A stretch of 64,000 nt of DNA from assembly GCA_963737655.1 (NCBI GenBank), contig CAVTTN010000002.1, positions 512,001 to 576,000 of the forward strand, given 5' to 3'. Shown here one piece after another: positions 1 to 21,126 of this stretch (position 1 is its first letter; each line of letters starts with the position of its first letter). The DNA is from an uncultured Planctomycetota bacterium. GTDB taxonomy: Bacteria > Planctomycetota > Planctomycetia > Isosphaerales > Isosphaeraceae. The notes beneath the pieces were generated by a model, which saw only the letters and a list, made by a program, of their open reading frames with translations, was not told the DNA's origin and ran no database searches. Both the position numbers and the translations under genes were made by a program.

Positions 1-297
1 GACGGGGTGGGGGACCAGGACGGCCAGAATCCAGGCGATTCCCGCCTCGCGGAGAGTCATCGACCGTCTCGAAATGGGCCGAGGCCGCCCCGAGGAACCC
101 CGACGAGCGGTCGTCGGCGAGGAGGCGTCTGGCTGATCGATCGGCCAGGCGGAATGGTCGGCTTCAACGCTTTCGACCGAGGAAAAAGATCGGGCAATCC
201 GCCGGGATTTTGCCGGTTTTCCTGGATTCCTCGGTCGTGGCGACGAAGGATCTCCCGGCCCTCGCGGCGAGGGACCCGCCTCGGAGCCACCGCCCCC

Positions 298-325
298 TTG
301 ACGGCCGACCCGTCGCGGGTATCAT
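298..325 (+). promoter_or_regulatory. putative sigma70 promoter for tRNA-Leu
   Basis: TTGACG (298-303), 16-bp spacer, TATCAT (320-325), about 75 bp upstream of the tRNA. Confidence 0.5.
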
Positions 326-399
326 GAATACTCTCTCACCCAGCCCCAAGCCGGGAAGCGGTCCCCCGCATCACCCCGACCGACGGACGTGAGGCCCTC

Positions 400-486
400 G
401 CCGGAGTGGCGGAATTGGCAGACGCGCTAGCTTGAGGGGCTAGTGAGCTAACCATGCTCGTGCAGGTTCAAGTCCTGTCTCCGGCA
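400..486 (+). tRNA. tRNA-Leu(GAG)
   Basis: Acceptor stem GCCGGAG/CTCCGGC+A; D-loop GGAATTGGCAGAC; anticodon arm CTAGC-TTGAGGG-GCTAG; long variable arm; T-loop GGTTCAAGTCC; CCA not encoded. Confidence 0.96.
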
Positions 487-498
487 GTTGTTCCGACG

Positions 499-529
499 AA
501 AGCCAGGGCCATCCGCCCTGGCTTTTTTT
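499..529 (+). terminator. rho-independent terminator after tRNA-Leu
   Basis: AAAGCCAGGGC-CATCC-GCCCTGGCTTT hairpin running into a T7 tract. Confidence 0.85.
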
Positions 530-614
530 CGTGGATCGACGGGCCGATCCGTGGGTGACCGGCCCCGATCTTCGTAGGCGTACCGCCCGCAAGAGGATCG
601 GCCAGGAACGCGAG

Positions 615-648
615 AGGCCCCGGGACGACGGAAGTCGTCCCGGGGCCT
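615..648. terminator. 15-bp perfect hairpin downstream of the giant gene, probable terminator
   Basis: AGGCCCCGGGACGAC-GGAA-GTCGTCCCGGGGCCT, 30 bp past the minus-strand stop at 679; no long U tract. Confidence 0.55.
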
Positions 649-678
649 GGCGTTCTCGTCGGCGACCTCGTCCGCGGA

Positions 679-3600
679 TTATTCGTCCCGGGGGCCCTTC
701 CAGAGGCTTTCCAGGGCGAGGTCGTGGGCCGTGGCCCTGGGGCGGATGGCCTTCTGCTGGAGCTTCCGGGCGTGGGCTCCGGCGGCCCTGGGGGCCGGGG
801 TTTGCTGCTTGACCAGGGGCAGAGGCCGGTCGGGATGGCCGAAGGCGAACTTCAGGGCCGAGCCGGCGGTCGGGGTGGAGGTTGAAGTCGAAGGTGCGGG
901 GGTGAGGGTCCGGGTCGTCGCCGGGGCGATCGGGGCGAAGTCGCTGCCGGAGGCCGAGGTCGCGAGCTCCTTGAGGGCCGTCGTCACGCCGCCACGGGAC
1001 GGCAGCAAGGCCGGCAGAGGCTGGAAGTTGTGGCTGAAGACATTCGCCGGGTCGGGGGTGCCGAAGGGGGTGATCGCCGCCCCTCCGCCGGAGAACGAGG
1101 CGTAGAACTTCGCGCCCACCGGGTCGTAGACGACCACGTCGGTCTTGCTGTCGCCGTCGTAGTTGGCGACCACCGGGATGTCGGCCCCGTTGGGGACGCC
1201 ATACTGGAAGATGTTCGCCCCTCCGGCGGAGTAGCTGATGTAGTACCGGACCGAGGCGGGGTCGAAGACGGCGATGTCGGTCTTGCCGTCGCCGTCGAAG
1301 TCGCCCGCGACCGGGATTCCCTGGCCGTTGGGGTTGCCGAACAGGAAGGTGCTGGCGCCTCCGGCCGAGTAGGAGATGTACCAGCGGGCCGAGGGGGGGT
1401 CGTAGACGGCCACGTCGGTCTTGCCGTCGCCGTCGAAGTCGCCGGCCACGGGCAGGTCGTTGCTGCCCGGGACGCCGAAGGCGAAGGCGTTGGCCCCGCC
1501 GGAGGAGTACTGGATGAAGAACCTCGCCGAAGTCTGGTCGTAGACGGCGATGTCGGTCTTGCCGTCGCCGTCGAAGTCGCCGGAGATCGGGATGTCGTCG
1601 TGGTTGGGCAGGCCGAAGGGGTTGGGGACGCCCCAGGGGACGACCCGGGCGCCTCCGCCGGAGAGGCTGATGTAGAAGGTGGCCGACCTCGGGTCGTACA
1701 CCGCGATGTCGGCCTTGCCGTCGCCGTCGAAGTCGCCGGAGACCGATCGGCCGGCCCCGTTGGGGATGCCGAAGGTGTACGCCTTGCCCCCGCCACCGGT
1801 GTAGCCGAAGTAGAAGGTGGCGGAGGAGGGGTCGTATACGGCGTAATCGGTCCTGCCGTCGCCGTCGTAGTCGCCGGCAGCCTGGATGACGGTGACCGGC
1901 TGGACCTTGGTGACGGGGCCGACGTTGCCGGCGACGTCGGTGGCGACGAGGTAGAACTGATCCTTGCCCAGGGGGAGGTTGGAGGCGGGGGTCAGGGTGT
2001 AGGAGCCGTCGGCCCCGGCCACGGCGGCGGAGACGAGGTGGACGCCGAGGTCATAGAGGCCCACGGTGGCATACGGCTTGGTGATCCCGGTCAGCCGAGG
2101 ACGGCGGAGCGAGGTGATGCCGTCTCCCTTCACTCCGGTGTCGTCGGCCGGGAGGATGCCCAGGGTGGGGACGCCCGGCGGGATCGAATCGACGGCCATC
2201 GTGAGGGTCGGGCTGAGGCTGACGTTGCCGGCCCCGTCTCGGGCCCGGGCCTGGAAGTTGTAGACGCCGCTGACCAGATCGACCGACGGGGCCACGACGT
2301 AGGTGCCGCCGGAGTCGGCCACGGCGGTGCCGAAGACGGTGCCCAGGGTGTTGACCAGGTCCACGGCCGTGCCCGCCGCGGCGGTCCCGGTGAACCGGGG
2401 CCGGACCAGGCTGGTGATGTTGTCGCCCTTGACGCCGGTGTCGTCGGCCGGGAGCAGCGAGATTGTCGGCGCGGTCGGGGCGTTGGTCGCGATGATGAGG
2501 GTAAACTGCGAGCTGGCGGCGGTGTTGCCGGCCGAGTCGGTGGCGATGACCTGGACCGGGTACTTGCCGTCGGCGAGGTCCAGGGTCGGCTGGAGCGAGT
2601 AGGTGCCGTCGGCCAGCGAGACCGAGCTGACCGAGGAGCTCCCGTAGTTCAGGGTGACCTTGATGCCCGGGTCGGTCACGCCGACCAGGTGGGGCCGACG
2701 GACGTTGGTGGTGAAGTCGCCGACCAGGCCGCTGTCGTCCTTGGGCAGGAGGGTGAGGGTCGGGATCGTCGGCGGCTGGGTGTCGATCACCAGGGGCCGG
2801 GGTGCGGCCAGGGTGGTGGAGTTGCCGGCCAGGTCGGTGGCCCGGACGCTGATGTTGTACGTCCCGTCGGGCAGGTTGGTGGACGGGGCGACGGTGTAGG
2901 TGCCGTCGGACCCGGAGATCACCGAGCCGAGGACGCCGGTATCCCCGATCAGGTCCACGAACACGCCGGCCTCGGTCGTCCCGGTGAACCGGGGGGTGCG
3001 GACGTTGGTGACGTAGTCCCCCTTGATGTTCGAGTCGTCGGCCGGCACGAGGGTCGGCTGGCTGAGGATCGGGGGGATGGTGTCGATCGTGACCGTCAGG
3101 GGAGGCCCGAGGGGCCCGACGTTGCCGGCCAGGTCGGTCTGCTGGCTGGCGTAGGCGTACTTGTTGTCGGGCTGGGTGGTGGTGTCGGAGATCGTCCCGC
3201 CGCCGACGATCGAACCGACGAGGACGTAGGTCGAATCGGGCGACGAGGCGAGCTTGCGGAAGAGGGAAACGGTGGCCGTTGGCTCGGTGGCGGTGACGTC
3301 GAGGATCCGGCCGTTCTTGAAGTTGGTGATGCCGTCGCCGAGAGGCCCGCTGTCGGTGGCCTGGTCGAGGGTCGGGGCCGGCGGGGCGGCCGGCTTCTGG
3401 GTGTCGAAGAAGACGGCGACGGTGCCTCCGTAGGACCCGGCGTTGCCCGCGGCGTCCACCTGGATGGTCGAGTAGACGAACGTCCCGGTGGTGTTCGGGT
3501 TGATCACGGGGCCGGGGTCCTGGACCGAGCCGGCCCCGACGACCTGGCCGATGTACTGGTAGGCCGAGTCCTGGGCGCCCTGGGGCTTGCGGTAGAGCTT

Positions 3601-6600
3601 GATGGTGACGCCGGTCTCGGTCGGCGTGAGGTCGAAGATCGGGTTGGTGACGTCGGTCACGTCGTCGTTGTTGAACTGGCCGCTATCGCTGGCGGCCTCC
3701 AGGACCGGCGGAGGGGCGGTGCCGGGGGCGGTCAGGTCGATGTCGAGCTGGTAGGCGCCGCTGGTGCTGGCGTTGCCGGCCAGGTCGGTGGCCCGGACCT
3801 CCAGGCTGTAGATCCCCTCGTTCAGGGGCGAGGTGGGCTGGAGCGAGAAGGTGCCGTCGGCCAGGGCCGTGCCGGTGGCCAGGACGTTCGACGGGTTGGA
3901 GGCGTCGAAGAGGACCAGGGCGGCCCCGGCCTCGGTCTTGCCGGTGATCCGGGGCTGCTGGTTGCTGGTGATCCCGTCTCCCTTGGTCCCCGTATCGTCG
4001 TTGGGGTTGATCCCGAGGTTGTTGGGGACCACGGGCGGGGTGGTGTCGATGGTGACGGGCAGGAAGCTGCTGGCCGTTCCGGGGTTGCCGGCGAGGTCGA
4101 TCTCCTGGGCTTCGTAGTCGTAAACCCCGTCCGGCGTGGGCGTTGGCAGGTTCGTGTCGATCACGTTGCCGGTGCCGACCCGGGTGCCGACGACCTGGAA
4201 CGCCCCGGTCCCGCCGTGGACCCGTCGCAGGAGGTTCACGGTGGCCGTGGTCTCGGTCGAGGTCACGGCGAAGGCCGGCAGGGTGGACTTGGTGGTGTTG
4301 TCGGTGTTGCTGGCGCCGGTGTCGGTCGCGTCGGTGAGGTCCGGGATGGTGGGCACGCCGGGGGCGATGTTGTCGAAGGTGACGATCGTGGTCACCAGGC
4401 CCGGGAGCACGCCGGGATTGCCGGCGGCGTCGGTCTCCTGGACCGAGTAGATGTACACGCCGTTGGCCGGGGCCGAGGGGTCCTGGAGCATCCCGCTGCC
4501 GGTGATCGGGGTGCCCACGGCGACGTAGACGGGGTTGGACGACTGCGGGGCCCGGAAGAGCTGGACCGAGACGGTCGATTCGCTGGCCACGACGTCGAAG
4601 AAGGGGGCCTTGGCGTTGGTGTACTCGTCGGTGTTGCTCGGGCCGCTGTCGCTCTTGGCGTCGAGGACCAGGCTCAGGGCGGAGGCCGGCGCGGTCGTAT
4701 CGATGGTCACGACCAGGGCGGAACTCGGGGACGAGGTGTTGCCGGCGAGGTCCATTTCCTGGGAGGCGTAGTCGTACACGCCATCGATCGGGACGTTGCT
4801 GGCCAGGGTGATGTCGGTCAGGGCGACCGACTTGAGCGAGCCCGTCAGGGCCGCGGAGTTGACGACCACGTAGGCCGGCGGCTTGCCGCTGGTGACGTGG
4901 GGCCGCCGGAGGAGCTGGAGGACGCCGGTCGTCTCGGTCGGGGTGATGTCGAAGACCGGGGCGGTGGCCGAGGTGACGTTGTCCTTGTTGCTCGGGCCCG
5001 TGTCGCTGGCGTCTTCCAGGTCGGGCGTGGTGGGGGTGAGCGGCGGGGTGGTGTCGATGGTGACGGTCAGGGGGTCGCTGAAGGGCCCGGGATTGCCGGC
5101 CTGGTCGATTTCCATGAACGCATAGTTATACACGCCGTCCGGGGGGTTCTGGAGGGCGAGCTGGGTATCCTGGAGCCGGCGGCTGGCCGAGCTGGTGGGG
5201 CTGCCCACGCTGGTGGCCACGGCCAGCGTGTAATTGGTGTCGGTGGCGAGCTTCCGGAACAGGACGACGGTGGCCGAGGCCTCGGTCGAGACCATGTCGA
5301 AGAACGGCGCCGTGTTCTTGGTGATCCTGTCCGAGTTGCTGGAGCCGGTGTCGCTGGCCGATTCCAGGACCGGCGGGTTGAGCGGCTTCGAGGGGGGCGT
5401 GATGTCCACGAGGATCGTCAAGTTGGGGCTGGGCAGGCTGATGTTGCCGGCCACGTCCTCCTGCTCGACGAAGTAGGTGTGGGACCCGCCGGAGAGGGTC
5501 CGCTTGTCCTGGATCGTGACCGTGCCGGAGCCGGTGGCGGTGGCGATCGGCGTCCCGGGCATCGTGGAGTCGAACAGCATGACCAGCGCCCCGGGCTCGA
5601 TGCCGGTGACGTCGATATAGGGGCTGGTCACATTCGTGTAGTTGTCGTTCGGGTCGTAGCCGCTGTCGCTGCCGCCCGGGGCGGGCAGGTTATGGTCGAG
5701 GGTCGGCGTGTTGGGGGCGCCCGGCGGGGTGGTGTCCAGGGTGAAGCTGAACAGGGTGATGTTGCCCTTGGTGCCCGACTGGTCGGTGGCCTGGACGCCG
5801 ATGGTCTTCACGCCGTCGGTGGCGAAGGCCGTGGTGACCTGGACCGAGAAGTGCCCCGCGGCGTCGGTGAAGCCGCTGCCGATCTTGGGCGGCGGCTGGA
5901 TGCTCGGGTCCGTCTCGTCGTAGAGGTCGATCTGGACCACGCTCCCGAAGGCCGCGCCCTGCTCCGAGAGGCCCGCGATGAACGGCGTGGGATCGTTGGT
6001 CTTGCGGTCGTTATTGAGCAAGCCGGTGTCGCTGCCGCCGGGAGGGGGGTTCTTCGGGTCCAGGCCGATCGAGGTGGGGAAGACGATCGGGGCCAGGCGG
6101 ATGGTGAAGGCGCCCCGGCCGTAGGTGGTGGCGTAGAGGACGTCCGGGCCCTGGGAGATGTCGGGCCTTCCGGTGGTCGGGTCGATCGGGCCGAGGACCA
6201 GGTTCAGGCTGGTGACCAGGGCGTTGGGCAGGCCGCCGCCGTCGCCCGGAGGGCTGGGGGTCTGGTCGGTGCCGTTGGGGTCGGCCGAGGGGAAGATCGT
6301 CCAGGTCTGGCCGCCGTCGAGCGACCGGAACACCCCGCCCTCGCCGCCCACGTAGAGGACCGGGTGGCTCGATCCGGTGGGGTTGGCCGGGTTGTCCGGG
6401 ATGATGTACCGCCAGTCGGCCTGGACCGAGGTGAAGTCCTTGAGCCGGGAGGCCAGCTGCATCATCGACGGGGCGCTGCCGAAGAACGGCTCGGTGATGT
6501 TGAAGAGGTTGCCGGTGATGTTCACCCAGGTCGCGCCGGCGGCCGTGGAGTCCACCATGTGGTAGACGCCCTTGCTCGTCACGGCGTAGGCCTCGTGGCT

Positions 6601-9600
6601 ACCTCGGGTCGGGTTGGTCACGATCTGCTGGATGGACGAGCCGTCCAGGCCGGCCGAGAGGTTCTTCCACTGGTCGCCGTTCTGGCCGCCGCCGGTGAAG
6701 GTGACGAAGAGGTCGCCGTTGGTCGTCCCGGCGTAGACGAAGTTGTCCAGGTTGCCCAGCCCGGCCGGCCCGTTGGGGTCCGGGGCCCCGTAGGCCAGGG
6801 CCTGGGCGTTGGAGCCGTCCAGGGCCGAGGGCTTGCCGATCAGGCTCCAGAACTTGCCGTCGGTCTCGGTGCTGTAGACCGACCCGTTGAACGAGCTCAT
6901 GATGACCTGTTCGCCCGTCAGCGGGTTGACGGCGAAGTTGAACCCCATGCGGAACGGCCATTGGGGGTCGGTCACGTCGAAGATCGGGCCGGTGTTGGGG
7001 TCCTTCTGGCCGCCGCCGTTGGCGTTGATCAGCTGGTTCGTGCGGCTGTTGCCGTCGAGCTGGAAGAAGTCCGAGACGACGCCGTTGTCGGTCTCGGCCG
7101 GGACCTCGAAGCGGTAGACCGAGCCGTATTGCGAGCTGCCCGGCCCGGTCTGGACGACGGCGATCCCGGCGCCGGTGCCGAGGTAGGTGGCGTTGCCGGT
7201 GGACCAGGTGATGTCGCCGTAGCCGGCCTGGCCGGGCTGGATCACGTTGGCGTTGGCGAAGGGGAAGCCGGTCCCGTTGGTGGTCCCGTAGAACATCCCC
7301 TTGAGGAACGAGGCGTTGGCCGCGAGGTTGGACGGCTCGGCGGCCCCGTAGAAGAACTGGGTGGTCTGGAGGTTGCCGTTCCTGGACCCGCTGGCGATCG
7401 GGATGTCGCCCTTGTCGGTGGCGAGGTTGGTGGTCGAGCCGAGGCTGCCGATCAGGCCGCCCTTGCCGTTATCGACGGCCGTGAACACGCCGTCGTCGTC
7501 GCCGAAGATCAGCCGGGTCTTGCCGGTGACCGGGTCCTTCATCGAGATGATCTGATGAATGCCCCGGGTCGGGACGCTCCAGGGGTCGGCGGCGTTGGTG
7601 TCGAAGGTCGAGGGCTGGAGGGCCTGGTCGAACGGAGTCCACGTGGCCTTGGCCCCGGAGTTGGAGAACGCCAGGAGGTTGGTCACCGGGATGGTGGCCG
7701 CGGTGAGGAACGGGCTCCTCGGGTTGACCAGCAGGTTCAGGTACGGGTTGTAGACCGGGCTGAACGGCGAGGTCGTGCCGTTGCCGGCGTTGGCCGCCCC
7801 GGGGGCGGAGATCAGGACCGGGCCGGAGGCCGTCGTCGAGTTCAGCGTGGGGTAGTTCTCCCACTGGCCCCGCTGGCCGCCGGTCTGGAGGTTCGCCGCC
7901 AGGGGGGCGGTGCCCTCGGGGTCGGTGTTCGACACGTAGAAGGCGTGCGGGTCGGCCAGGCCGGTCGTGTCGATCCGCAGGAGGCCCGAGGTCTGGTACT
8001 GGTCGGTCCCGCCGAGGTACAGGACGTTGGGGTTGCTGGGATCGACGGTCAGGGCCAGGTCGAAGTTGCCCAGGCCGAAGTTGTCCAGGTTCGGGTCGGC
8101 CGGGTCTTGGATGTCGGGCGCCTCGCCGTAGGGCGTCTCTTCGCCGGCGGGGTCGTAGTCATCGTAGGTGTCGTTGTTGGTCGGGACCTTCGGCTCGTTG
8201 TGGTCGCCGAGGGTGTCCACGGAGAGCTGGATCCGGGTCCAGTTCTGGCCGAAGTCCTTGGTCACGTACACGCCGTCGAGGTGGCCACCGGCGACGAGCT
8301 GATTGTCGGTGGTGACCTGGCTGGGCGTGCTGATCACGGCCGCGTAGAGCCAGCCCTCGTACAGGACGTCCTGGAGGGGGTTGCCGGTCAGCGCCGGCTT
8401 GGCCAGGACGATCTTGCCCTTGGGCGTGGCCGGCGAGATCGAGTTGGGCGTGGCGAGCTTGGAGAAGTCCGAGGCGGAGGAGAGGACCGGGACCGGCTGG
8501 GTCGGGGTCGAGTCGAAGCTGCGGATCAGCGGGTCGCCCAGGGCCCCGGTCATCAGGTTGAAGACCTGCCCCTGGTTCGGGCTGGAATAGACGCCGTCGC
8601 CCTGGAAGGCGGCGTAGAGGATCTGGAGGTTGCCGTTGGGGGCGCCGGTGCCGCTATTCTGGTCGAGGATGACGTCGGTGGCCTGGCCGGCCTTCATCCG
8701 GGTCCAGGTGTTGCCGGAGTCCTCCGACCGCCAGATCCCGCCGGAGATGCCGGTGCCGCTCACGGCGTTGCCGTTGACGTCCACGTCGGCCATCGCGGCG
8801 TAGACGATCACGTTGCCGCTGGTCGTCGGCGTCGGGTCCACGGTGATCTTGTAGCCGACGGTGCCGAAGCCGACCTGCTTGCCGGTGGAGTCGGTCAGGC
8901 CGCTGAAGTCGTGCTTCCTGAGCGACGAGTTGATCGGCAGGAGGTTGCCCTGGGCGTCCACGTTGGTGGCCGAATCCAGGAGGGTCCAGGTCGCCCCGCC
9001 GTCCTCGGAACGAAGGATGCCGATGCCCCGGGTCGAGAGCGACGAGGTGTCGCCGCGGGTCGGGGCGCCGTCGGCCCGGGTGCTGGGGACCTCGACGCCC
9101 AGGGCGTTGGGGTCGCCCGTGGTGGCGAAGAGGATCGACTGGTTCGGGTCGTTGTTCCGGCCGAAGATGGCGATCGACCCGATGTTCATCCCGAGGGTCG
9201 GGCCGAAGTCGGTCAGGGGCACGTAGGTCGGCCCGACCGGCGAGGTGGTGAGGAAGTCGGTCGTCTTCCAGATCCCGCCGGAGGCCGCGCCGATGTAGAC
9301 CGTGTTGCCCGAGGGGTCCGAGGGGTCCACCGCGATGGCGTTGACCCGGCCGGAGACCTGGGCGTTGAGCCCTTCGCCCTGGGCGCCGATCCCCGCCGGG
9401 CCGACGGCCGTCCAGGTGTCCGAGGCCAGGGGGTTGGTGGGGTTCTGGACGAAGATCCGGAACGTCCCGGTGAACTGGTCGGCCACGGACTCGCCCAGGC
9501 CGGTCAGCGGCACGGGCTTGCCCAGGTTGAGCGTCCAGTTGTTGATCGTCCCGGTCTTCCCGGTCTCGCTGTCGACGATCCGCAGGATCCAGGTGCCGGC

Positions 9601-12600
9601 GGCGGCCCGGCCCTTCAGGACGCTCAGGGGGAACTGCGGGTTGAACGTCCCGAAGAAGTCGGGCCCGCCGTTCTGGATCGGCGTGGTGGCCGTGTCGTCG
9701 AAGGTCGTCGAGTTGAAGTTCGCCTTGGTCCCGGTGGCGCCGACCCCGCTGAAGAGCTGGACCGTCGTGCCGTCGGGCGCGATCAGGTAGCCGGTCAGGG
9801 CCGGGTCGTTGGCGTAGGTCACCGAGATCGTCAGCGTGACGTTCTGGACGACGAAGTTATCCGGGACGACCAGCTTCGAGTCGGTCGTGCTGTTGGCGCC
9901 GGGGATCGCCGGCGAGTAGCCGTTGGGCGTCTTGTAGGTGACGGTCACCGTCCCGGCCGACGGGTCGCCCCGGAGCATGTCCAGCCCGGCGTTCTCGTTG
10001 GTGTCGAGGTAGTCGCCGGTGGACGAGCGGATCTTGGTCGGGTCGAGCGTGACGGTGTACGTCCCGCTGAGCTGCTGGGTCGGGAACGAGACGTAATAGG
10101 TGTTCGCCGGGGCGCTGTTGTCCAGGTCCTGGGCGATCATGTACGGGCCGGAGATCAGGCCGCTGGGCCCCATGACCCTCAGGACGGCCCCGCTGCTCAT
10201 CAGGCTGGCGGTGTCCATGGCCCGGTCGAACGTGATGGCCAGCCGCGAGACGGTCTGGTCGGTCACGAGGTTGTCGGGCGTGGGCAGGACCCCGGGGACG
10301 AACGTGTTGATCACGTGGGGGCCGGGGACGATCAACGGCTGGGTCGTCCGGTCGAACGGCGGGGCGAAGACGGTCCCGCTGAAGGTCGTCGGCGACAGGG
10401 GGGTGGGCGTGGGGTCGGCGTAGATGTCCCCCGGCGAGGTGCCGAGGAACGGCGACGACCTCGGGTCCTCGCCCGTGGTCCCGTCGCTGTTCTGGTCCAT
10501 CTGGTTGCCCGAGACGATCGTCCCGGTCGAGGTGACCGAGCGGATGCGGTCGGTGATCGACGGCCCGACCTCGTAGCTGTACGTCCCGGTCTTGCCCTGG
10601 GGCGTCGCGAAGAAGATCAGGAACCGCGTCGGGCCCTGGGCCGTGTTGCCTTCCAAAAGGGGGATGATCGCGCCGGGCCCGCTGGCGATCGGGACGTTCA
10701 CCCCGGCGGCGAACCCGGAGGTGGTCACGCTGCGATACGTCACCGAGATGTTCGCCGCCGAGAGGCTCCCCGGGTCGATCGGCCGGTCGAACTGGACGAC
10801 GAACCCGTTGACCAGGGCGGTCCCGTCGGCGACCCCGGGCACGCCCACGGCCCGGGTGTTGTTGTAGCTGACCGGGGTGCCGTCCAGGGCGTGGACGGTC
10901 TGGCCCAGGGTGGGCGTCGAGGTGCCGGGCGCGACGCTCGGCGTGATCGGCCCCATCGTGCTGGTCACGACCCGGGGGCCGGAGGCGATCACCGCCGAGG
11001 TCACCCGGGTGTTCAGCGGCTGGAAGGTGGACGTCCCCCAGTTGTCGTTGCCGGCATAGGCCTGGTACAGGTGGCCGCCGACCAGGGCCAGGCCCTGGAA
11101 GTCGCCGTAGCCGGTCGGCGGCTTGAACGGCGTCCCGAACCACGGCTGGTTGGCCGCGGGCGACTCGTTGTCGGGGATCGGCCCGAGCGTGACGGGCTGG
11201 CCGGTGATCCCGTCGGTGACGACCTGCGGGTCGTTCACGAACGTCTCGGGCGAGAACGTGGCCCCGCCGTCGATGCTCAGGCCCACGTAGGTCGCCACCA
11301 GCGCCCTCTGCGGGTCGTTCCGGGCGTCCTGGAAGGAGACGGCGAGCGTCCCGGTGGTCGGGTCGACGGCCACCGCCGGCTTGAACTGCGGGCGGCCGTA
11401 GGTGACCGTGACCCCGTCGAACTGGCCGGTGTACGAGTCGGAGAACCCGTCGGTCATCGCGTTGTCGTCGTTGACGATCTGGGGCGAGGACCAGGTCGCG
11501 CCCCCGTCGTCGGAGTACTTCAGCGTGATGTCCGTGTTGTCGTAGATCAGCGCCCCGCTGAAGTCCTTGGTGTCGCGGGTCACGTAGGCGGCGTAGATCC
11601 GGCCCTGGTACGGGCTGAACGAGCCGAGGGTGTTGTCCGAGGCGATCACCGGGGCCGGCGCGATCCCCCCCGGGTCCACGCCGGTGAAGGTCGCGAGGTT
11701 GTAGCCGCCGAGCAGGGCGCCGGACTGGCTGATCACGTACGGTCCGGTCAGGTCCACGGCCTTGACCACGGTCCCGGTCAGCCGCCCGCCGACGTCGGTC
11801 GTGTCAACGATCGTGTCCTTGCCGCCGGTCATGTTCGAGGAGAAGTCCAGGCCCCAGTCCAGGAGCCTCTGCATCGGCGTGGTGAGCTTCGAGCCGCTGA
11901 AGTCGGTGATCTCCAGCCGCCACGTCCCGTTGATCGACGCCCGGCCCAGGCCGTAGAACGCGGTGAGGTCCGGCCCGGCCGCCAGGTTGTTCTTGGTGTC
12001 GAGCAGCTGCGTGTCGGGGCGGAAGGCGCCGACGAACGGCGTCTTGTACATCGCGTTGTCGATCGAACGGGGAGCTTCCTCGTCGAAGACCGTGTCGATG
12101 GTGAAGTACGGGTTGCCGTTGGGGTCGAGCGGCCCGAGCAGGCCGAGGCCGAGGCCGACGCCCGCGTTGGCGAAGATCCCGGTCTCTCCGGGGTGGAGGG
12201 CCGGGTTGCGGATCAGGGGGATCCGCGTCCCGTCGGGGCCGACCAGGTCGATCTCGACGTTCTGCAGGCCGTCGGGCAGCGCCAGGCTGACCCGGACATC
12301 GACGTGCGAGACCGTCGTGAACCTCGGGTCGGTGATGTTCACCGACAGGGGGAACGACGAGGTCACCGGGGTGGTCCCGAGCTCCGTCTGGCCGACGATC
12401 GCGTTGTGGTAGTCCTTCACGTCGTAGGTCGAGGTGGCGCTGTAGCTGACGCCGGCCTGGACGTGGTCGGTCGTGATCGTGTCGTAGTTGAAGGCCGGGG
12501 CGATCCGGAAGTCCTGCGAGCCGAACTCGTCCCAGATCACCGAGACCTGGCCGGCGGGGATGCCGGGGTCGCCGGCGTAGTTCGTGTTGGGCAGGCGGCC

Positions 12601-15600
12601 CTGGCTGATGGTGATCTTCGGCGCGGCGTCGAGCTCGCCGTTGGGGCCGAGGAACTTGGTGTCGTCGAGCACCTCGGGCGGGGTGAACGACGAGGCGCCG
12701 TCGGACGACCCGGTCAGGACGATCGCGGCGACCTGGTCGGTCTTCTCGCTGTGGGTGTCGCCCAGCTCGTTGGTGGCCCAGGCGATGTAGACGTTGTTCG
12801 AGAAGGCGTCGTTCTGGGCCTTGCCGGTGGTCGGGTCGGTGAAGGCGGCGGCCTGGGCCTGGTTGAACGCGGTGCCGATCGGCATCCCGGTCAGCGAGTC
12901 GAAGGCCATGACCCGGTCGTTGAGCGAGTCGGTCACGTAGATCCGGCCGCGGAGGGCGTCGTAGGCGATCCCCTTCGGCGCGTTCAGGCCGGCGGTCGTG
13001 GCCACCAGCGTCTTGCTGAAGGCGCCGGTGTTGGCGTCGAAGACCAGGACGTTGTCGCTGGTCTGGCCGACGACGAACAGGTTCCCGCCGTTGAACGCCA
13101 GGCCGTCGGGGCCGATCAGCCCGTGGCCCTGGGCGGCGATGTTGAGGAACTGGCCGTTCAGGCCGTAGCGGAGGACTTCGTTGTTGTTGAAGCTGCTGAC
13201 GTAGAGCGTGCCGTCGGGCCCGAACCGGAGGGCCGAGGGGTTGCTCAGGCCGCCCGCCCGGGGCTGGACGAACGTCTCCACATACTCGCCGGTCACGCCG
13301 TCCAGGACGACCACGCGGTCATCCGAGGCGTCGGCGGCGAAGAGGTCGGGCCGGCCGTCGCCATTGACGTCCGGCCCCCAGGCCAGCCCGGTGTAGATGG
13401 CCGTGGGGGCGAGGGGGGCGAGGAACGTGCCGGTCGGGTCGTACTTGATGACCTGGTTGGTGTCCCGGCTGGAGACGTAGAGGGAGCCGTCGGCGCCGAC
13501 GGCCAGGCCGTCGGCGCTCTCCAGGCCGCCGGAGCCTCGGGCCACGATCGCCGAGACGAACGCGCCGGTGCCGGCGGCGTACTTCAGGACGCGGTTGTCC
13601 TGGAGGCTGCCGGCGGCGACCTGGGGATCGACGAAGGACGGCAGGACGGCCCCGCTGACGACCAGGAGGTTGCCGGCCGAGTCGAAGGCCAGGTCCACCG
13701 GGCCATCCAGGCCGCCGCTCTGCGGGGTGACGAAGACCTGATCGAAGGCGCCGGTGTTGGGCTTGTACCTCAGGACCGAGTCGGTCGCGAAGCTGCCGAC
13801 GTAGAGGTAGCCGGTCGTCTTGTCGAAGGCCAACCCCGTCGCCCCGGCCAGGCCGCCGGAACCGGCCGAGACGTAGTTGCCCAGGTAGGCCCCGGTGGTG
13901 ATGGCGAACTTCAGGACCTTGCTCGATGCGGCGGTGCCGGTGCCGTAATCGGCCACGTAGAGGTTGCCGTCGGGCCCGACGGTGATCCCCTCGGCGTGGA
14001 GCAGGTTGCCTCCCCCGGAGGGCACCAGGGCGTCCAGGAACAGGCCGGTCTTGGCGTCGAACCGGAGGATCTGCGAGGGGTCCTTGGCCAGGAGGCCTCG
14101 GGGGTCGGTCACCGGGTTGAACGTCGAGCTGGCGACGAACAGGTAGCGGCCGTCGGCCGAGAACGCCAGGCCCTGGGGCTTGGACAGGCCGCCGCTCAGC
14201 GGGGCGATGAACGTGCCGAGGAGGGCCCCGGTCGTCGGGTTATACCGGACGATGCTGTTCGTGCCCGGGCTGGAGACGTAGAGCAGGCCGTCCGGGCCGA
14301 TCGTCTCGAATCCGGGATCGACCGGAGGGGCGACGACCAGGTCACCCTGGGGCAGGCCGGTGGTGGCGTCGAACCTCAACACATTGTCCGAGCCGGCGCT
14401 GGAGACCAGGAGCTTGAGGGCGCCGGTGCTATCGGCGGCGAAGACCAAGCCGTCGGGCTTCGAGAGGGTCTGGCTGCCCTCGGGCACGGCGGTCTTGACC
14501 AGGTTCCCCTTGGCGTCGGGAAGGAGCTGGATGGTGTAGTTGGCGGCGACGAAGTCGGTCTGGAGCCGGCCGGAGGTGTCGTACTTGAGGACGGCGTCGG
14601 TCGCGGCCGAGGAGACGTACATGTTCCCGGCGGCGTCGAAGGCGATCCGCTGGGGCTGGCCGAGGGGGCCCGGGGTGAAGTTGCCGAGGGGCTCGCCGGT
14701 GGTGGTGGTGTAGGCCAGGATCTGGTTGGTGCCGAAGCTGGCGACGAGCATCCCGGTCGGCGTGAAGACGATCGATTCGGGCTGGAACAGGCCGTCCCGG
14801 TTGGGCTTGACGATCACGTCGATGAACGAGCCGGTCGAGCCGTTGTAGCGGATGACCTGATCGTTGGCGAGGTCCGTGACGTAGAGGGTGCCGCCGGAGT
14901 CGAAGCCCAGGCCCTGGGCGGCGCCCAGCCCGCCGGCGCCGGCCTTGACGAAGACGGCCCCGGTGTTGCCCGGGGCGGGGTCGGCCACCCCGGCCGAGGT
15001 GAACCGGAACACGCCCGAGCCCGAGGCCACATACAGGTTGCCCGACGCATCGACGATCAGGCCCTCGGCCGGGCCGCCGAGGCTCCCGGCCGGGACGAAT
15101 GTCGCCCCGCCGTTGCCGGCGGAAGGCAGGGGGGTGCCGGCCGCCGCCTTGAACCGGAGCACCTGGCTCCCGCTGGAGACGTACAGGTTGCCCGAGGCGT
15201 CGAACGCCAGCCCCTCGGGCACCGTCAGCCCGCCGGAGCCGGCCTGGACGAAGATGCCGAGGTACGCCCCGGTGATCAGGTTGTACTTGAGGACCTGGCC
15301 CATCCCGCCCGGCCCGGTGCTGGCCACGTACAGGTTGTGGTCCAGGGGGCTGATGGCCATCGCCTGGGGGCCGATCAGGCCGCCCGAACCTCGGTAGATG
15401 AACGCATCGACGAACGCCCCGGTCGCCCCGTCGAACCGGAGGACCTCGTTATTCTGCTGGTTGGCCACGTAGATCAGGCCGTTGGGATACTGCGAAGCCA
15501 GGGCCCCGAGCTGCGAGGCCTTCACGTACAGGACCGCCGTCGGCGTCTCCAGGTTCTCGGAGTTGGCCTGCTGGATGAACATGCCGTTGGCCGCCGAGTA

Positions 15601-18600
15601 TTGCAGGACCTGATTGGTGTCCTGGCTGGCGACGTAGAGGCTGCCGTTGGAGAAGGTCAGGCCGATCGGCGTGACCAGCCCTCGGGGCGTGAACGGCCCG
15701 ATGAAGATCCCGTTGGGGTCGTAGGCCAGGACCACGTTGGTGTCCCGGCTGGAGACCAGCAAGTCGCCGTTGGGCGCGAAGACGACGCCCTGGGGGGTCG
15801 TCAGGTCGCCGGCCCCGGTCGGGACGAAGTGATCGATGAACAGCCCGGTGTTGCCGTCGTAGCGGAGGACCTCGTTCGTGCCGGCGCTGGAGACGTAGAG
15901 GTTGCCGTCCGGGCCGAAGACCAGACCCTGGGGCTTGGCCAAGCCGCCGGAGCCGGGCGTCACGAAGACCGAGTTGAACTGGAACGTGTTGATGTTGTAG
16001 GACAGGACGTCGTTCGAGCCGCCGTCGCTGACCATCAGCAGGGCGGAGTTGTTCGGGTCCAGCGCCACGTCCTCGGGGCTGGCCAGGGTCGGCGGGTTGA
16101 GGTTGCCGACCGGGGCCCCGGTCGTGTCGTAGGCCAGGACGTTGTTGGACCCGAAGCTGGAGAGCAGGAAGGCGTTCCGGGCCGGGTCGAAGGTGAAGCC
16201 CGTGGGGGTGTTCAGGCCGCCGGCGCCGGAGGCGATGAAGGTGCCCAGGAACTTGCCGTCGTTGGCGTTGAATAGCAGGCTGTATTCCAGGACGCTGCTG
16301 GTCCCCTGGCTGGCGACCAGGAGGACCTGGGTCGGCGTCCCCGCGACGGACACCGTGGCGACCTGCATCCGCTCGGGGATCGACAAACCACCGTTATTGG
16401 CGGTGCCGACCAGGACCGTCAGCGTGTTGGTGCCGATCACGTAGCGAAAGACTTCGCTGTTGCCGCCGTCGTCGATGTAGAGCTGGCCGCTGGCGTCGAA
16501 CAGGAGGCCGGTGGGGGACTTGATCCCGGAGTTCGGCGCGAGCAGGTAGGCGGTCCCGGCGTTGGCCGTGACGGTCGAGGGCAGGGGGGCCCGGTCTTGC
16601 CGTCGAAGCGGTCGACCGAGCCGTTGATCGAGTCGGACACGTAGAGGTTGCCGTCGGGCCCGAAGATCAGGCCATCGGGCGAGGCCGGGGCGACGGTCAC
16701 GGCCCCGCTATCGACGAACACGCCGAGGTAGGCGCCGGTCGTGGCGTCGAACTTGAGGATCTGGCCGGTCCCCTGGCTGCCCACATACAGCGTGTTGTCG
16801 CCGGAGGGGCCGAAGGTCATCCCCTTGGGCGAGCTCAGGCCGCCCGAGCCCTTGGCGACGAAGATCCCGAGGAACGCGCCGGTCTTGCCGTCGTACTCCA
16901 GGACCTCGTTGTTGGTCTGGCTGGCGACGTAGGCGTTGCCGTTGGGGCCGATCACGACCTCCTCGGGGCCGAGCAGGGCCTCGGGGTCGGTGTAGCCGAG
17001 GAACGCGCCGGTCGTGGCGTCGTAGCGGAAGATCCGGCCCGAGGTGTTGCCGGCGACGTACAGGGTGCCGTCGCCCGAGTTGTTCGTCGGGTTGATCGTC
17101 AGGCCGTCGGGGCCGTGGACCGGGGGCGGGGTGAAGCCGTAGACCCCGGGGAGGGTGAAGACGTTCTGGCCGGTGGCCGAGTACTTGAAGACCTGGCCGT
17201 TGGCTTGCCCGACGACGAAGAGATTGCCCGAGGCGTCCAGGACCAGGCCGCTGGGCGTGGCGATCCCCGACTCGCCGGAGGGGACCAGCGAGGCCCCCTT
17301 CAGCCCGGGGCCGGGCAGCGCCTTGCCGGCCTTGGTCACCGGGTCGTAGGCGAACCTCAGGACCGAGTTGGTCCCCTGGCTGACCACGTCGAGGTTCCCG
17401 CCGGAGTCGAAGGCGATGCCAACGGGACTGGTCAGGCCGTTGGCGCCCGAGGCGACGTAGGCCCGGACGAACGCGCCGGTGGCGGCGGCGTACTCCAGGA
17501 CCTGGCCGGTCAGGTTGCTGGCGACGTAGAGGTCGCCCTTGGAGTCGAAGGCCAGGCCCTCGGGCCCGTTCAGGCCGCCGGAGCCGGCCTTGACGAAGAC
17601 CCCGGTGCCCACCGGGTTGCCGTTCGAGTCGTACCTCAGGACCTCGTCGGTGTTCTGGCTACCCACGTAGACGTTGCCCGAGGCGTCGACGGCCAGGCCC
17701 TCGGGCAGCCCGAGCTCGCCCCCGGAGTTGACGAACACGCCGAGTAACGCGCCGGTCGTCGCGTTGTACTTGAGGACCTGGTTGGTCGCGTGGCTGCTCA
17801 CGTAGAGCACCCCGTTGGCGAACAGGATGCCCTCCGGGGCCTTCAGGCCGCCGTTGAGCGTCGGGTCCGACGGGATGAACGACTTCAGGAACGCGCCGGT
17901 CTTGCCGTCGTACTGGTTGACCTCGTTGCCGTCCCGGCTGGTCACGTACAGGTTGCCGTCGGGGCCGATGGCGTCGAACTGAGGGGCGTGGAGCGGGTCG
18001 GGGATGAACACGCCCTGATAGGCGCCGGTCGTCGCGTTGTACTGCAACACCTGGTCGGTCGCGTAGCTGCTGACCAGCAGGAGGTTGCCGTCGAAGGTGA
18101 TCCCCCGGGGCTGGGTCAGGCCGCCATTGAGCGCCGGGTTGCCCGAGACGAACACCTTGACGAACTTGCCGGTCTTGCCGTCGTACTCGATGACCTCGTT
18201 GCCGTCGCGGCTGGCGACGAACAGGTCGCCGTTGGGGCCGAAGACGGCCCCCTCCGGGGCGTCCAGGGGCTCGGGCGTGAAGGTCCCGATCAGGGAGCCG
18301 GTCGTCCCGCTGTACTCGATCACCCTCTCGGTCTTTGAGCTGGTGACGTAGAGGTTGCCCTGGTAGAACGCCAGGCCCTGGGGGCCGCTGAGCTTGCCGT
18401 TGAGCGTCGGGTCTCCCGAGACGAAGACGCTCGTGCCCTTGGGCAGGCCGGCGATCGGCTGGCCGGTCTTGCCGTTGAAGACCAGCACCTTGTTGTCGAA
18501 CCCGTTGCCGACGAAGAGGTCGGAGTAGCCGTCGCCGCTGACGTCCGTGCCGAAGGCGATCCCCTCGGGCTCGTTCAGCCCGGCGCTGCCGGAGGCGACG

Positions 18601-20560
18601 AACGTCCCCAGGGACTGGCCGGTCTTCGGGTCGTACCGGACGATGCTATCGGTGGACTGGCTGACGACGTACAGGTAGCCGTCGGGGCCGAGGGTCGAAT
18701 CGCCCGGGGCCGCCAGGGGCTCGGGCGTGATCGAGGAGATGAACGTGCCCGGGCTGGCCGAGGCCGCCCCGGTGTAATGCAGGACCTGGTTGGTGTTCTG
18801 GCTGGAGACGTAGAGCGACCCGTCGGGCGCGAAGGCCAGGCCCGCCGGGCCGTTCAGGGCCCCGCTGTTGGGCGGGACGAACGTGCCGAGGAACACGCCC
18901 GTGTTCTTGTCGAACTGGTAGACCGCGCCGGTCTTGTTGCTGCCGACGAACAGGTTGCCGTTGGGGCCGAACACCAGGCCGTCGGGCCCGGTCAGGCCGC
19001 CGGTGGGCGGGGCGAGGAACGAGCTGAGGAACGTGCCGTTGGCCCCGGTGAACCGGAGGACCTCATTGGTGTTGTAGCTGGCGACGTAGAGGTTGCCGTT
19101 GTCGTCGGTGTTGAACGCCAGGCTGGTCGGGCCGCTGAGGTCGTTGCCCGGGGCCGTCCCGGTCGTCGCGAAGATGGTGGAGCCGGCGAACAGGTCGGTC
19201 TTGGCGTCCAGGGTGTAGCGGATGATCTGATTGGTGTTGAAGCTGCTGACGTAGAGCTGCTTGTCGGGGCCGAAGACCAGCCCCCTCGGGCCGCTCAGGC
19301 CGGCGTTGTTGGCCTGGGTGACGACCACGTCCAGGAACGCGCCGGTCTTGCCGTCGTAGCGGAAGATCTGGTTGGTGCCCGCGGCGGCCACGTACAGCTT
19401 GCCGTCGGGGCCGAAGGCCAGGCCCTGGGGCTGGCTCAGGCCGCCCTCGCCCGACGGCACGAACGAGCCGAGGAACGCGCCGGTCCCGGCGTTGTAGCGG
19501 AGGACGGCGTCGGTGTCCCGGCTGCTCACGTAGAGGTTGCCGTCGGGGCCGATGACCTCGTCGCTGGGCGCCTCGGCGCCACGAGGGACTGGTCGAACTC
19601 GCCGAGGGAGGCACCGGTGGTGCCGTCGACCTGGATCACCCGGCCGGTCTGGAGATTGGAGATGAACAGGTCGCCGCTGGTCGGGTCGAAGGCCACGTCA
19701 TCGGGCCGGAAGAGGTCCGAGCCCGAGGCGAAGACGCTGGTGAACTGGCCGTTCGAGCCGAGGTACTGGTCGACCTGGTTCAGGCTGTCCGACGCGACGT
19801 AGACGTTGTTATCGGGCCCGACGGTGATGCCCGAGGTCGTCCCGGTCGGCTGGGTCACCACGGCGTTGCCGGCCGAGGTGTCCACGGCGAGGGTGGGGGT
19901 GAAGGCCTGGTCCCCCTGGCCGCCGGTCGGGTCGTACCACTGGTGGACGATCTTGTTGGCGAGCGTCAGGTTGGGCGTCGGGTTGGTGAAGTTGTACTTC
20001 TGGAGGACGATCGCCCCGCTCTTGTAGTCGATCGTGTGCTCGTCGGAGACCACGTAGAAGTTGTGCTGGCGGTCGAAGGCCGCCGAGGTGTCGGTCGTGA
20101 AGGGATAGACCGTGGTGTAGGTCGGGTTCCCCTTGGCGTCGAAGGTCGGGGCGCCCTGGGAGGGATCGTAGGCCGGGGCCGGCAAGGAGAGGCCGAGCGT
20201 GGCGTTGCTCGTGAGCTTCGTCCAGTTCTGGCCGCCGTTGGTCGTGTAGGCCAACTCGCCCACTTCCTGGAGCGTCCCGGGGAGGTCGCCGGCCGTGTCG
20301 GTCCTGGACCAGACGGCCACCGCCTTCGTCGGGTCGAGCGGATCGACGGTGACCGTCGGCGACTGCGTGTCGTCGGCCGTGTTGGCCACGTTCGAGTGAT
20401 AGAGGATCGTCGGCGGCGGCAAGACCGCCATCAGCGTCCGCGCCTCGAGCGGCTCCAGGGCCAGCCTGCGCAGGCGATCGCGACCGGTCGGATCCACTCG
20501 CTTCCGCAGCTGTCCGAGGCTTCGCGCGGCGGGGTATCGCTTCTCAGACGGCGACGTCAT
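679..20560 (-). CDS. giant secreted/surface repeat protein (~6,627 aa if two single-base deletions are corrected): NHL-like propellers, Asp-box/BNR propellers, two P-proprotein convertase domains, 13 Ig-like repeats, 6 FG-GAP-like repeats
   Basis: Three consecutive minus-strand ORFs whose repeats continue across frame changes at ~19575 and ~16590. ATG at 20560 is followed by RLRRLALEPLEARTLMA (planctomycete extracellular-protein motif). Motifs: GLAFGPDGNLYV, SxDGGxTW, GTWxLxIxD, DTG..D.IT, GDFDGDGKTD. Confidence 0.85.
1050..1880 (-). repeat. six FG-GAP/VCBS-like repeats (C-terminal Ca-binding propeller)
   Basis: GDYDGDGRTD, GDFDGDGKAD, 3x GDFDGDGKTD, ANYDGDSKTD at ~45-aa spacing; boundaries approximate. 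Confidence 0.85.
1885..6085 (-). repeat. 13 tandem bacterial Ig-like repeats (SiiE/Big_13-like)
   Basis: 13 units of ~100-115 aa with D[TS]G...D..T...P.F and D.AGN...IDT motifs; boundaries approximate. Confidence 0.85.
12865..19860 (-). repeat. array of 48 NHL/Vgb-like beta-propeller blades
   Basis: Counted by hand from the P.GL.FGPDG.LYV.S....V..Y/F motif across the three frames. Confidence 0.85.
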
Positions 20561-21126
20561 GGCAACCTCGCGGTCGATTCGGGAGGAGGGATCCGGATGT
20601 ACGCAAGCCTTCGACTTCGAGAGGCTCGGATAAGGACGAACGAGAATAATCAACTCGCCAACTGTAAAGAAAGATCCGACCCGGCAAATCGTGAAAATTC
20701 TTCTCAAAGTCGGAGCCGAGTCGCAGTTGAATGCATGCAAGCTGTCAGTGCCGGGCACGGCGCGGGCGGGACCCCGAGGGGGGAGGCGGGCGGACATGGA
20801 ACGTACAGATCAGGAGTGAGTGAAGTCAAGAAGTCACCGTTGGATGTTCGACGGGCGTCCATCGGCGGAGACTCGGCGCGGAGGGGCGCCGGAATGGCTC
20901 GGGAATGCGGGCTTGATCGCGATCAAGCGAATATATCACAGTCCTCCCCGCATCTTGAGGATTATGAAAAATGGGCAGGAGGGGCAGGCCGTCGGACCGT
21001 GTCGAAAAGAAGGGACATGAGGCCGAAAACCGGCTTCGATGCCCTTGACGGGATCGTCGGTCGGTGGTATGACTCGCCCGCCCCGCCGGGGCCCATTCGA
21101 TTCTCCGAACCAGGGAAGGTCCGGAC

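Follow-up and report, generated by a model that had tools for sequence, protein, structure and literature searches.

The window analysed here is a 64,000-nucleotide stretch (positions 512,001 to 576,000 of contig CAVTTN010000002.1, assembly GCA_963737655.1) from an uncultured planctomycete of the Isosphaeraceae, and our subject is an array of 48 NHL-type beta-propeller blades encoded by a giant gene on its minus strand. The window is about 70% G+C and both strands are open across the range of the array; the coding strand is minus. Three minus-strand open reading frames (ORFs; 19526..20797, 16437..19529 and 679..16440), overlapping by 4 bases, form the gene, and joining them with an X at each of two frame breaks gives a read-through protein of ~6,700 residues. 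A candidate ATG at 20560 (MTSPSEK...) agrees with the start of the orthologue P0003 and is the likely site of translation initiation. The orthologue in G003, a genome of the same genus, is a single uninterrupted frame of 6,761 aa; the source genome of the window is in 3 contigs at a completeness of only 87.7%, and the two one-base breaks would fit indel errors of long-read assembly. The gene, its breaks and the array are placed as follows (2|3 denotes the junction between blades 2 and 3, and so on).

679..20560, minus strand: giant gene, three ORFs, ~6,700 aa if read across both breaks
19572..19573, minus strand: frame break 1, two bases in place of a codon, between ...DQSLVAP and APSDEVIG... 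at junction 2|3
16588..16589, minus strand: frame break 2, one base short within the GGGCCCCCC run, in blade 23 (...DRFDGKTG / PLPSTV...)
12865..19837, minus strand: 48-blade NHL-type array (self-built profile; Pfam NHL)

Blades were located with a hidden Markov model (HMM) built from 27 blades picked by regular expression and run on the X-joined read-through. Its 51 matches reduce to 48 blades, running from 19837 down to 12865, once two split blades are merged and one off-target match is removed, the same number that an earlier note on this DNA, made from the sequence alone, had counted at 12865-19860. The blades belong to the NHL family by its own Pfam model (PF01436, 68.3 bits against a cut-off of 20, in minus-strand 8401-16440).

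Blades, short linkers and their conservation

The canonical connection between successive blades is nine residues long, xxGSGGLxx (within FVxxGSGGLxxP). The earlier note had picked out twelve junctions by eye at which this connection is replaced by a short linker, and all twelve are present: after blades 2, 8, 11, 13, 19, 20, 26, 29, 30, 36, 38 and 44. Nine of them have in common the pattern F-T-P-x-P-L-x-x-P, which is three residues shorter than FVxxGSGGLxxP but retains its LxxP, whereas those at 2|3, 30|31 and 44|45 are of a different kind; the 'SENLETP...' stretch takes in PTAVLYV, the first strand of blade 31, which in the structure predicted from the window leads into a short helix. An objective rule (no more than two Gly in the nine residues preceding the next blade, counting the window, G003 and P0003 together) selects 11 of the 12 junctions and none of the 35 others. 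The junction that it misses, 36|37, reads FTPGPL in all three proteins.

As the earlier note had it, the short linkers cut the array into runs of 2, 6, 3, 2, 6, 1, 6, 3, 1, 6, 2, 6 and 4 blades, five of them exactly six. The groups of blades used below, with the roles proposed for them, are these; the predicted structures are described in the next section.

19592..19837, minus strand: blades 1-2, proposed N-terminal part of an outer 'clasp' propeller (2+4) that would close with blades 45-48
18738..19568, minus strand: blades 3-8, six-blade run between short linkers
18003..18707, minus strand: blades 9-13, five in all, divided by the short linker 11|12; modelled with unbroken confidence in the orthologue
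17148..17984, minus strand: blades 14-19, six-blade run; the orthologue model adds blade 20 to make a seven-bladed ring
16986..17111, minus strand: blade 20, lone blade flanked by short linkers; the orthologue model makes it the seventh of ring 14-20, at a predicted local distance difference test score (pLDDT) of 60-67
16096..16967, minus strand: blades 21-26, six-blade run, closed six-bladed ring in the orthologue model
15562..16077, minus strand: blades 27-30, four blades before the putative inserted ring, pLDDT 80-90; 29|30 behaves as an intra-domain junction
14674..15564, minus strand: blades 31-36, predicted closed six-bladed NHL propeller with borders SENLETP and TPGPLGQP
14335..14655, minus strand: blades 37-38 (pLDDT 54-65), separated by a 30-aa loop and following the putative inserted ring; would form a 4+2 ring with 27-30
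13408..14316, minus strand: blades 39-44, six-blade run between short linkers
12865..13377, minus strand: blades 45-48, putative C-terminal portion of the clasp ring

The same 48 blades, the same 12 short-linker junctions and the same pattern of runs recur in G003 (57% identity in the similarity search, 45% in the two alignments made for structure prediction) and in P0003 (49%), and the fragmented copy in G002 is, by eye, compatible with both the blade number and the linker pattern. Gain or loss of whole six-blade blocks at the short linkers, which the earlier note had suggested looking for among orthologues, did not occur in G003, P0003 or (by eye) G002, so that there were no such events to score. 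Two other length differences were seen in the G003 orthologue (L011): an extra segment of ~75 aa with GGSGY..AP.V repeats inside blade 3 (residues ~420-490), and one of ~80 aa that separates strands one and two of blade 36 (residues ~2040-2115).

To assess chance, 12 cuts were placed at random among the 47 junctions 1,000,000 times. Five or more six-blade runs arose in 387 of these placements, and a pattern that can be parsed as nested six-blade propellers in 49. Six of the twelve short linkers share one period-6 phase (after blades 2, 8, 20, 26, 38 and 44), a phase count reached in 9,779 of the 1,000,000 placements; when these six were held fixed and only the other six cuts randomized, a nested parse was available in 206 of 200,000 trials. 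The linker pattern is real and conserved, and no product of chance.

Short linkers of this kind are also found within six-blade units and within blade duplications. A relative of the same class (G023, whose protein is P0036) carries three six-blade NHL units with 113-aa domains between them, and in all three units the third blade is followed by a Gly-poor linker of six residues (HPALDG, FPELSG, LPSTDG). A Gly-poor short linker can therefore lie inside a six-blade unit, and linkers 11|12 and 29|30 of the present array, which likewise come after a third blade, behave as intra-domain connections in the predicted structures. Within the array, the most similar of 990 pairs of two-blade units is 12-13 with 14-15 (55.9% identity), and this duplicated unit includes the short linkers 11|12 and 13|14; some short linkers have thus spread by duplication. 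The unit occurs three times in blades 10-15 (10-11, 12-13 and 14-15; 17732-18569, minus strand), with an unusual inner linker of 12 aa (DPTLNGGL). Blades that follow short linkers resemble one another, as do blades that precede them, and these blade-position signatures did not discriminate among the competing architectures weighed below. On other long homologues our crude linker classifier returned only noise, and two seemingly regular patterns, '4|6|2' in P0088 and '1|1|6|4' in P0030, turned out on inspection to be artefacts of the classifier.

Predicted rings

Structures are AlphaFold2 predictions from alignments of two rows (window) and three rows (orthologue). A search of genome contigs for related loci yielded just 1 distant locus among 145 pattern matches, so a deeper alignment for folding could not be built. 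Models were compared by VIA-align against the top chains from Foldseek, and additionally by a non-redundant search; VIA-align rows are dominated by the best ring, and no row bears on split hosts.

Blades 27-38 of the window (593 aa, aligned with G003) were folded as a construct in which consecutive tiling would yield two complete rings. The best of five models has a mean pLDDT of 73.2 (range 59.7-73.2) and a predicted template modelling score (pTM) of 0.53. Confidence falls below 50 at junctions 30|31 (model residues 175-182) and 36|37 (472-481), in the 30-residue loop between blades 37 and 38 and at the C-terminus, and shows no dip at 29|30 (70-75) or 32|33 (73-86). Among the matches listed, 49 of 50 in one listing and 46 of 50 in the other lie within model residues 161..510, over a ring at 178..474 that comprises blades 31-36; the targets are six-bladed NHL and related propellers, with a few seven-bladed ones. 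The closest include TRIM2 (7b96_A on model 178..466; Z 30.6, root-mean-square deviation (rmsd) 2.1, 250 aa), TRIM71, Brat (1q7f, Z 28.0) and PknD (1rwl, Z 25.8). The other rows, 1 and 4 respectively, belong to multi-propeller chains covering more of the model at rmsd 5.8-26 (8jxh_B; 8s9p_B, 8ctg_C, 9qfq_P and 3dm0_A). The prediction for blades 31-36 is thus a closed six-bladed NHL ring with short linkers at both borders, sitting between blades that are not its members, 27-30 (pLDDT 80-90) and 37-38. Since neither of these leftovers could close by itself, the complete ring would interrupt other blades. Rings 27-32 and 33-38, both complete in this construct, did not form.

Blades 9-30 were folded from P0003, because the chain of the window is broken in blade 23. 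At 995 aa this is the smallest construct that gives three full rings and four leftover blades alike under the parse of the earlier note, under local nesting and under consecutive tiling. The model has a mean pLDDT of 77.1 and a pTM of 0.40. Confidence is below 50 at 13|14, 17|18, 20|21 and 26|27, stays at 74-84 across 11|12 and 29|30, and is ~60 at 19|20. Of the 50 VIA-align rows listed, 47 lie within model residues 226..530, which are blades 14-20, while three reach further (3bws_A, 3..529; 1l0q_A, 240..582; 2ymu_A, 229..811). Over 227..528, blades 14-20 match YncE, WDR5 and virginiamycin B (Vgb) lyase at Z 31-33 (YncE 3vgz_A: Z 32.5, rmsd 2.2, 282 aa), targets that we take to be seven-bladed, and the non-redundant search again placed seven-bladed targets there. 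It also placed the NHL domain of Lin41 (6fpt_A) on model 538..799, blades 21-26 (Z 29.0, rmsd 2.2, 250 aa). In this model, then, blades 21-26 are predicted to form a closed six-bladed ring between short linkers, and blades 14-20 a contiguous seven-bladed ring with the short linker 19|20 within it. The placement of blade 20 is the weakest part of the model; alternatively, this blade would be the sixth of a split host made of 9-13 and 20. Neither a ring of 12-13, 20 and 27-29 nor rings 9-14 and 15-20 formed.

Proposed nesting of propellers and its alternatives

In all seven family homologues in which we examined the sequences that flank the array (L018-L024, one of them of the same genus), these are contiguous: the N-terminal domain (residues ~80-313 of the window protein) runs on directly into the stretch past blade 48 (~2648 onward), along ...AVD...FTDPTTG...NVY[IV].W.... 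To judge by this comparison, the 2,330-residue array is an insertion in a loop of an Asp-box-bearing domain. The two ends of an array so inserted must meet, and this fits a 2+4 clasp of blades 1-2 with blades 45-48.

The architecture that we favour is a local and rather shallow nesting with at least one split host, to which we assign a probability of about 0.5. Here the 48-blade NHL-type module, within a putatively extracellular planctomycete protein of ~6,700 aa, would most likely fold into about eight rings, some of them discontinuous, with most of the conserved Gly-free linkers as ring borders. Five units (3-8, 9-20, 21-26, 27-38 and 39-44) would follow one another in series, held between blades 1-2 and 45-48, which would jointly close the clasp ring. 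In unit 27-38 the host would be split 4+2, its D-to-A connection from blade 30 to blade 37 interrupted by the complete propeller 31-36. Unit 9-20 would be either a host of blades 9-13 and 20 (5+1) with 14-19 as its guest, or a five-blade arc followed by the contiguous seven-bladed ring 14-20. Linkers 11|12 and 29|30 would be shorter intra-ring connections, and the whole array would sit in the loop of its BNR-like flanking domain. The leftover blades that flank closed units total six each time (4+2, 2+4 and 5+1). Put more strongly, the nesting may have three tiers, a BNR-like loop holding the NHL module with its clasp ring, and the module in turn holding at least one host (27-30 with 37-38, perhaps also 9-13 with 20) that carries a complete propeller; such a structure, with two successive propeller-in-propeller levels conserved across the genus, is a tentative proposal that we rate somewhat short of even odds. 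As for function, the domain types would likely make the array a compact multivalent ligand-binding cluster on a giant, adhesin-like surface protein.

Several observations weigh against this architecture. Both models have a modest pTM, the window models vary among themselves in mean pLDDT, and the fold alignments had only two and three rows. Blades 37-38 are of low confidence, a construct of 12 blades allows the leftover blades to pair by default, and the proposed closures (27-30 with 37-38, 1-2 with 45-48, 9-13 with 20) go beyond what the models show. The seven-bladed ring 14-20 removes the need for a split host in unit 9-20 and leaves a remainder of five blades; the dip at 17|18 falls within a ring, so that dips are imperfect marks of borders; and the duplication of 12-13 and 14-15 straddles the border proposed between host and guest in unit 9-20, which disfavours a simple history of insertion there.

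Some of these same points would be accommodated if there were no discontinuous propellers at all, and the array consisted of contiguous rings (of 6, 5, 7, 6, 6 and 6 blades) together with blades 27-30, 37-38, 1-2 and 45-48 as open arcs or irregularly packed. A short linker would then be a D-to-A connection that is merely three residues shorter and whose placement reflects the history of duplication. The contiguous ring 14-20 does enclose a short linker, the LxxP of the canonical connection is retained in short linkers, the stand-alone six-blade units of G023 have such a linker inside, the duplicated unit carries its own linker along, and the low confidence of blades 37-38 is as such a packing would have it. 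We nevertheless consider it less likely: the leftovers around closed units come to exactly six three times over, the 48 blades kept in the orthologues equal 8 x 6, the ends of an inserted array must meet, and we know of no arcs of two or four blades that are stable folds.

The earlier note went much further in the other direction, to eight six-bladed propellers of which three are discontinuous (12-13/20/27-29, 9-11/30/37-38 and 1-2/45-48), with insertions three deep. Such a parse has the merit of making every one of the 12 short linkers a ring border and, as the counts given above show, is rarely available by chance, even with the in-phase cuts fixed. It also fits the two types of blade found after short linkers, with polar, 'entry-like' first strands at blades 3, 9, 12, 14, 21 and 39 and canonical ones at 20, 30, 37 and 45, blade 27 being the sole exception. 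In the 22-blade P0003 construct, however, which allowed the innermost of these rings, blade 20 joined 14-19 instead; confidence does not dip at 11|12 or, in both models, at 29|30; the units of G023 hold short linkers inside; two guests flanking a single blade on six-residue linkers would be expected to crowd one face of the host; and the simpler local parse sums to six everywhere just as well. We think it very improbable. What the models support of it is the general idea that a whole propeller can interrupt other blades, as predicted for ring 31-36, and not the three-level grouping; likewise the short linkers are borders around 31-36 and 21-26 in the models, and fail as such at 11|12 and 29|30 and at 19|20. 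Still less credible is a plain succession of six-bladed propellers in phase with blade 3 (3-8, 9-14, 15-20, 21-26, 27-32, 33-38 and 39-44, with 45-48 and 1-2 closing), despite the six short linkers that share this phase, because the borders that it needs at 14|15 and 32|33 are canonical Gly-rich linkers, and because the window model gave 31-36 rather than 27-32 and 33-38, and the orthologue model 14-20 rather than 9-14 and 15-20. The earlier note had named consecutive rings and seven-bladed folds enclosing short linkers as the outcomes that would speak against nesting; of these the former were not predicted, and the latter was, in blades 14-20.

A beta-propeller is as a rule one contiguous domain, and a long array of repeats is taken for beads on a string. 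Known NHL proteins (TRIM2, TRIM3, TRIM71, Brat, Mei-P26 and the sensor of Mycobacterium tuberculosis PknD) share with the array the Pfam NHL family, and their six-bladed propellers superpose on the predicted rings 31-36 and 21-26 (Z 25-31, rmsd 2.0-2.6, 235-251 residues). They are single contiguous six-blade domains, whereas here 48 blades succeed one another with no other domain between, in runs whose lengths cannot be tiled into contiguous six-blade rings, and one predicted ring is seven-bladed. The YWTD-EGF arrays of LRP4, LRP6 and megalin and the 14-blade 'highly repetitive propeller' 2ymu resemble the array in having many similar blades and several rings per chain; 2ymu matches orthologue blades 14-26 as two rings (Z 30.9-31.1 over 505-517 aa, at an rmsd of 9.2). 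In these proteins each ring is contiguous, like beads on a string, while ring 31-36 is predicted to sit between four and two orphan blades. P0036, annotated as 'tRNA3(Ser)-specific nuclease WapA precursor' (Planctomycetes bacterium Pan216), has the same blade motif and a Gly-poor six-residue linker followed by an xxITLGPDG-type strand; it differs from the array in the 113-aa domains between its units and in that its short linker lies inside the unit and marks no border.

Insertions into propellers are themselves familiar, as in integrin alpha, where the I domain is inserted between propeller blades. A report on mosquito SGS1 describes non-propeller lid fragments inserted between propeller blades 5/6 and 6/7 (PMC9935623). 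Both kinds of insert are foreign and non-propeller, whereas the guest proposed here would be a complete propeller of the same repeat family as its host. A further form of irregularity is that of multi-propeller proteins such as DDB1 and Aip1, whose rings exchange strands. Phrase searches of the literature found no description of a propeller within a propeller, which is weak evidence of novelty. If true, propellers that interrupt propellers would represent a new means of gathering many binding faces in a cluster that is compact and topologically locked; they would raise the question of how a split host waits for a guest of 290 residues to fold, and would warn against tiling repeat arrays by plain counting.

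The flanking domain and the rest of the giant protein

The domain into which the array is inserted is encoded on both sides of it.

19838..20560, minus strand: flanking domain, N-terminal part, BNR/Asp-box-like, with a weak 'Planctomycete extracellular' motif; ends ...PTLAVDTSAGN before blade 1
10900..12864, minus strand: flanking domain, continuation, AAFTDPTTGKAQND..NNVYIAWAT...; Asp-boxes, P-domain

Its Pfam scores in the window are below cut-off for both BNR (20.6 against 27) and BNR_2 (22.9 against 31.4), as is that of the 'Planctomycete extracellular' motif near the N-terminus (16.1 bits against 25.5); in the homologue L021, BNR reaches 30.7 bits, above its cut-off of 27. A regular expression finds five Asp-box-like motifs in the whole read-through, two of them in the flanking domain (aa 3096 and 3175), and by eye the boxes YTTNGGQNWT and SSDGASSF adjoin the array. 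Another homologue, L027 (G048:C367:15200-33800; 6,096 aa), has at the same insertion point a smaller and more divergent NHL-like array of ~920 aa (residues ~264-1187), with 17 blades by HMM and a 105-residue gap that has room for one more, hence about 18; if 18 is correct, a count that is not firm, it would differ from 48 by five six-blade units. In P0081, P0088 and P0089 the NHL blades begin directly after first strands that resemble those of a P-domain of the proprotein-convertase type (..VTVQVNITHP..IQVRLLPP..), and in these proteins NHL propellers may have been inserted into a P-domain.

Pfam matches across the giant protein comprise NHL and related propeller families, BNR-like repeats and P-domains, together with 13 Big_13 stretches, Big_6 and FG-GAP repeats, the last three in the C-terminal half (679-8400, minus strand). 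Further Asp-box motifs, at read-through residues ~3931, 4025 and 4826, point to at least one additional BNR-like propeller in that half. On the plus strand, a frame of 5,081 aa (1030-16275) lies open antisense to the giant gene; most likely it is no gene but the shadow of a coding strand rich in G+C and in repeats.

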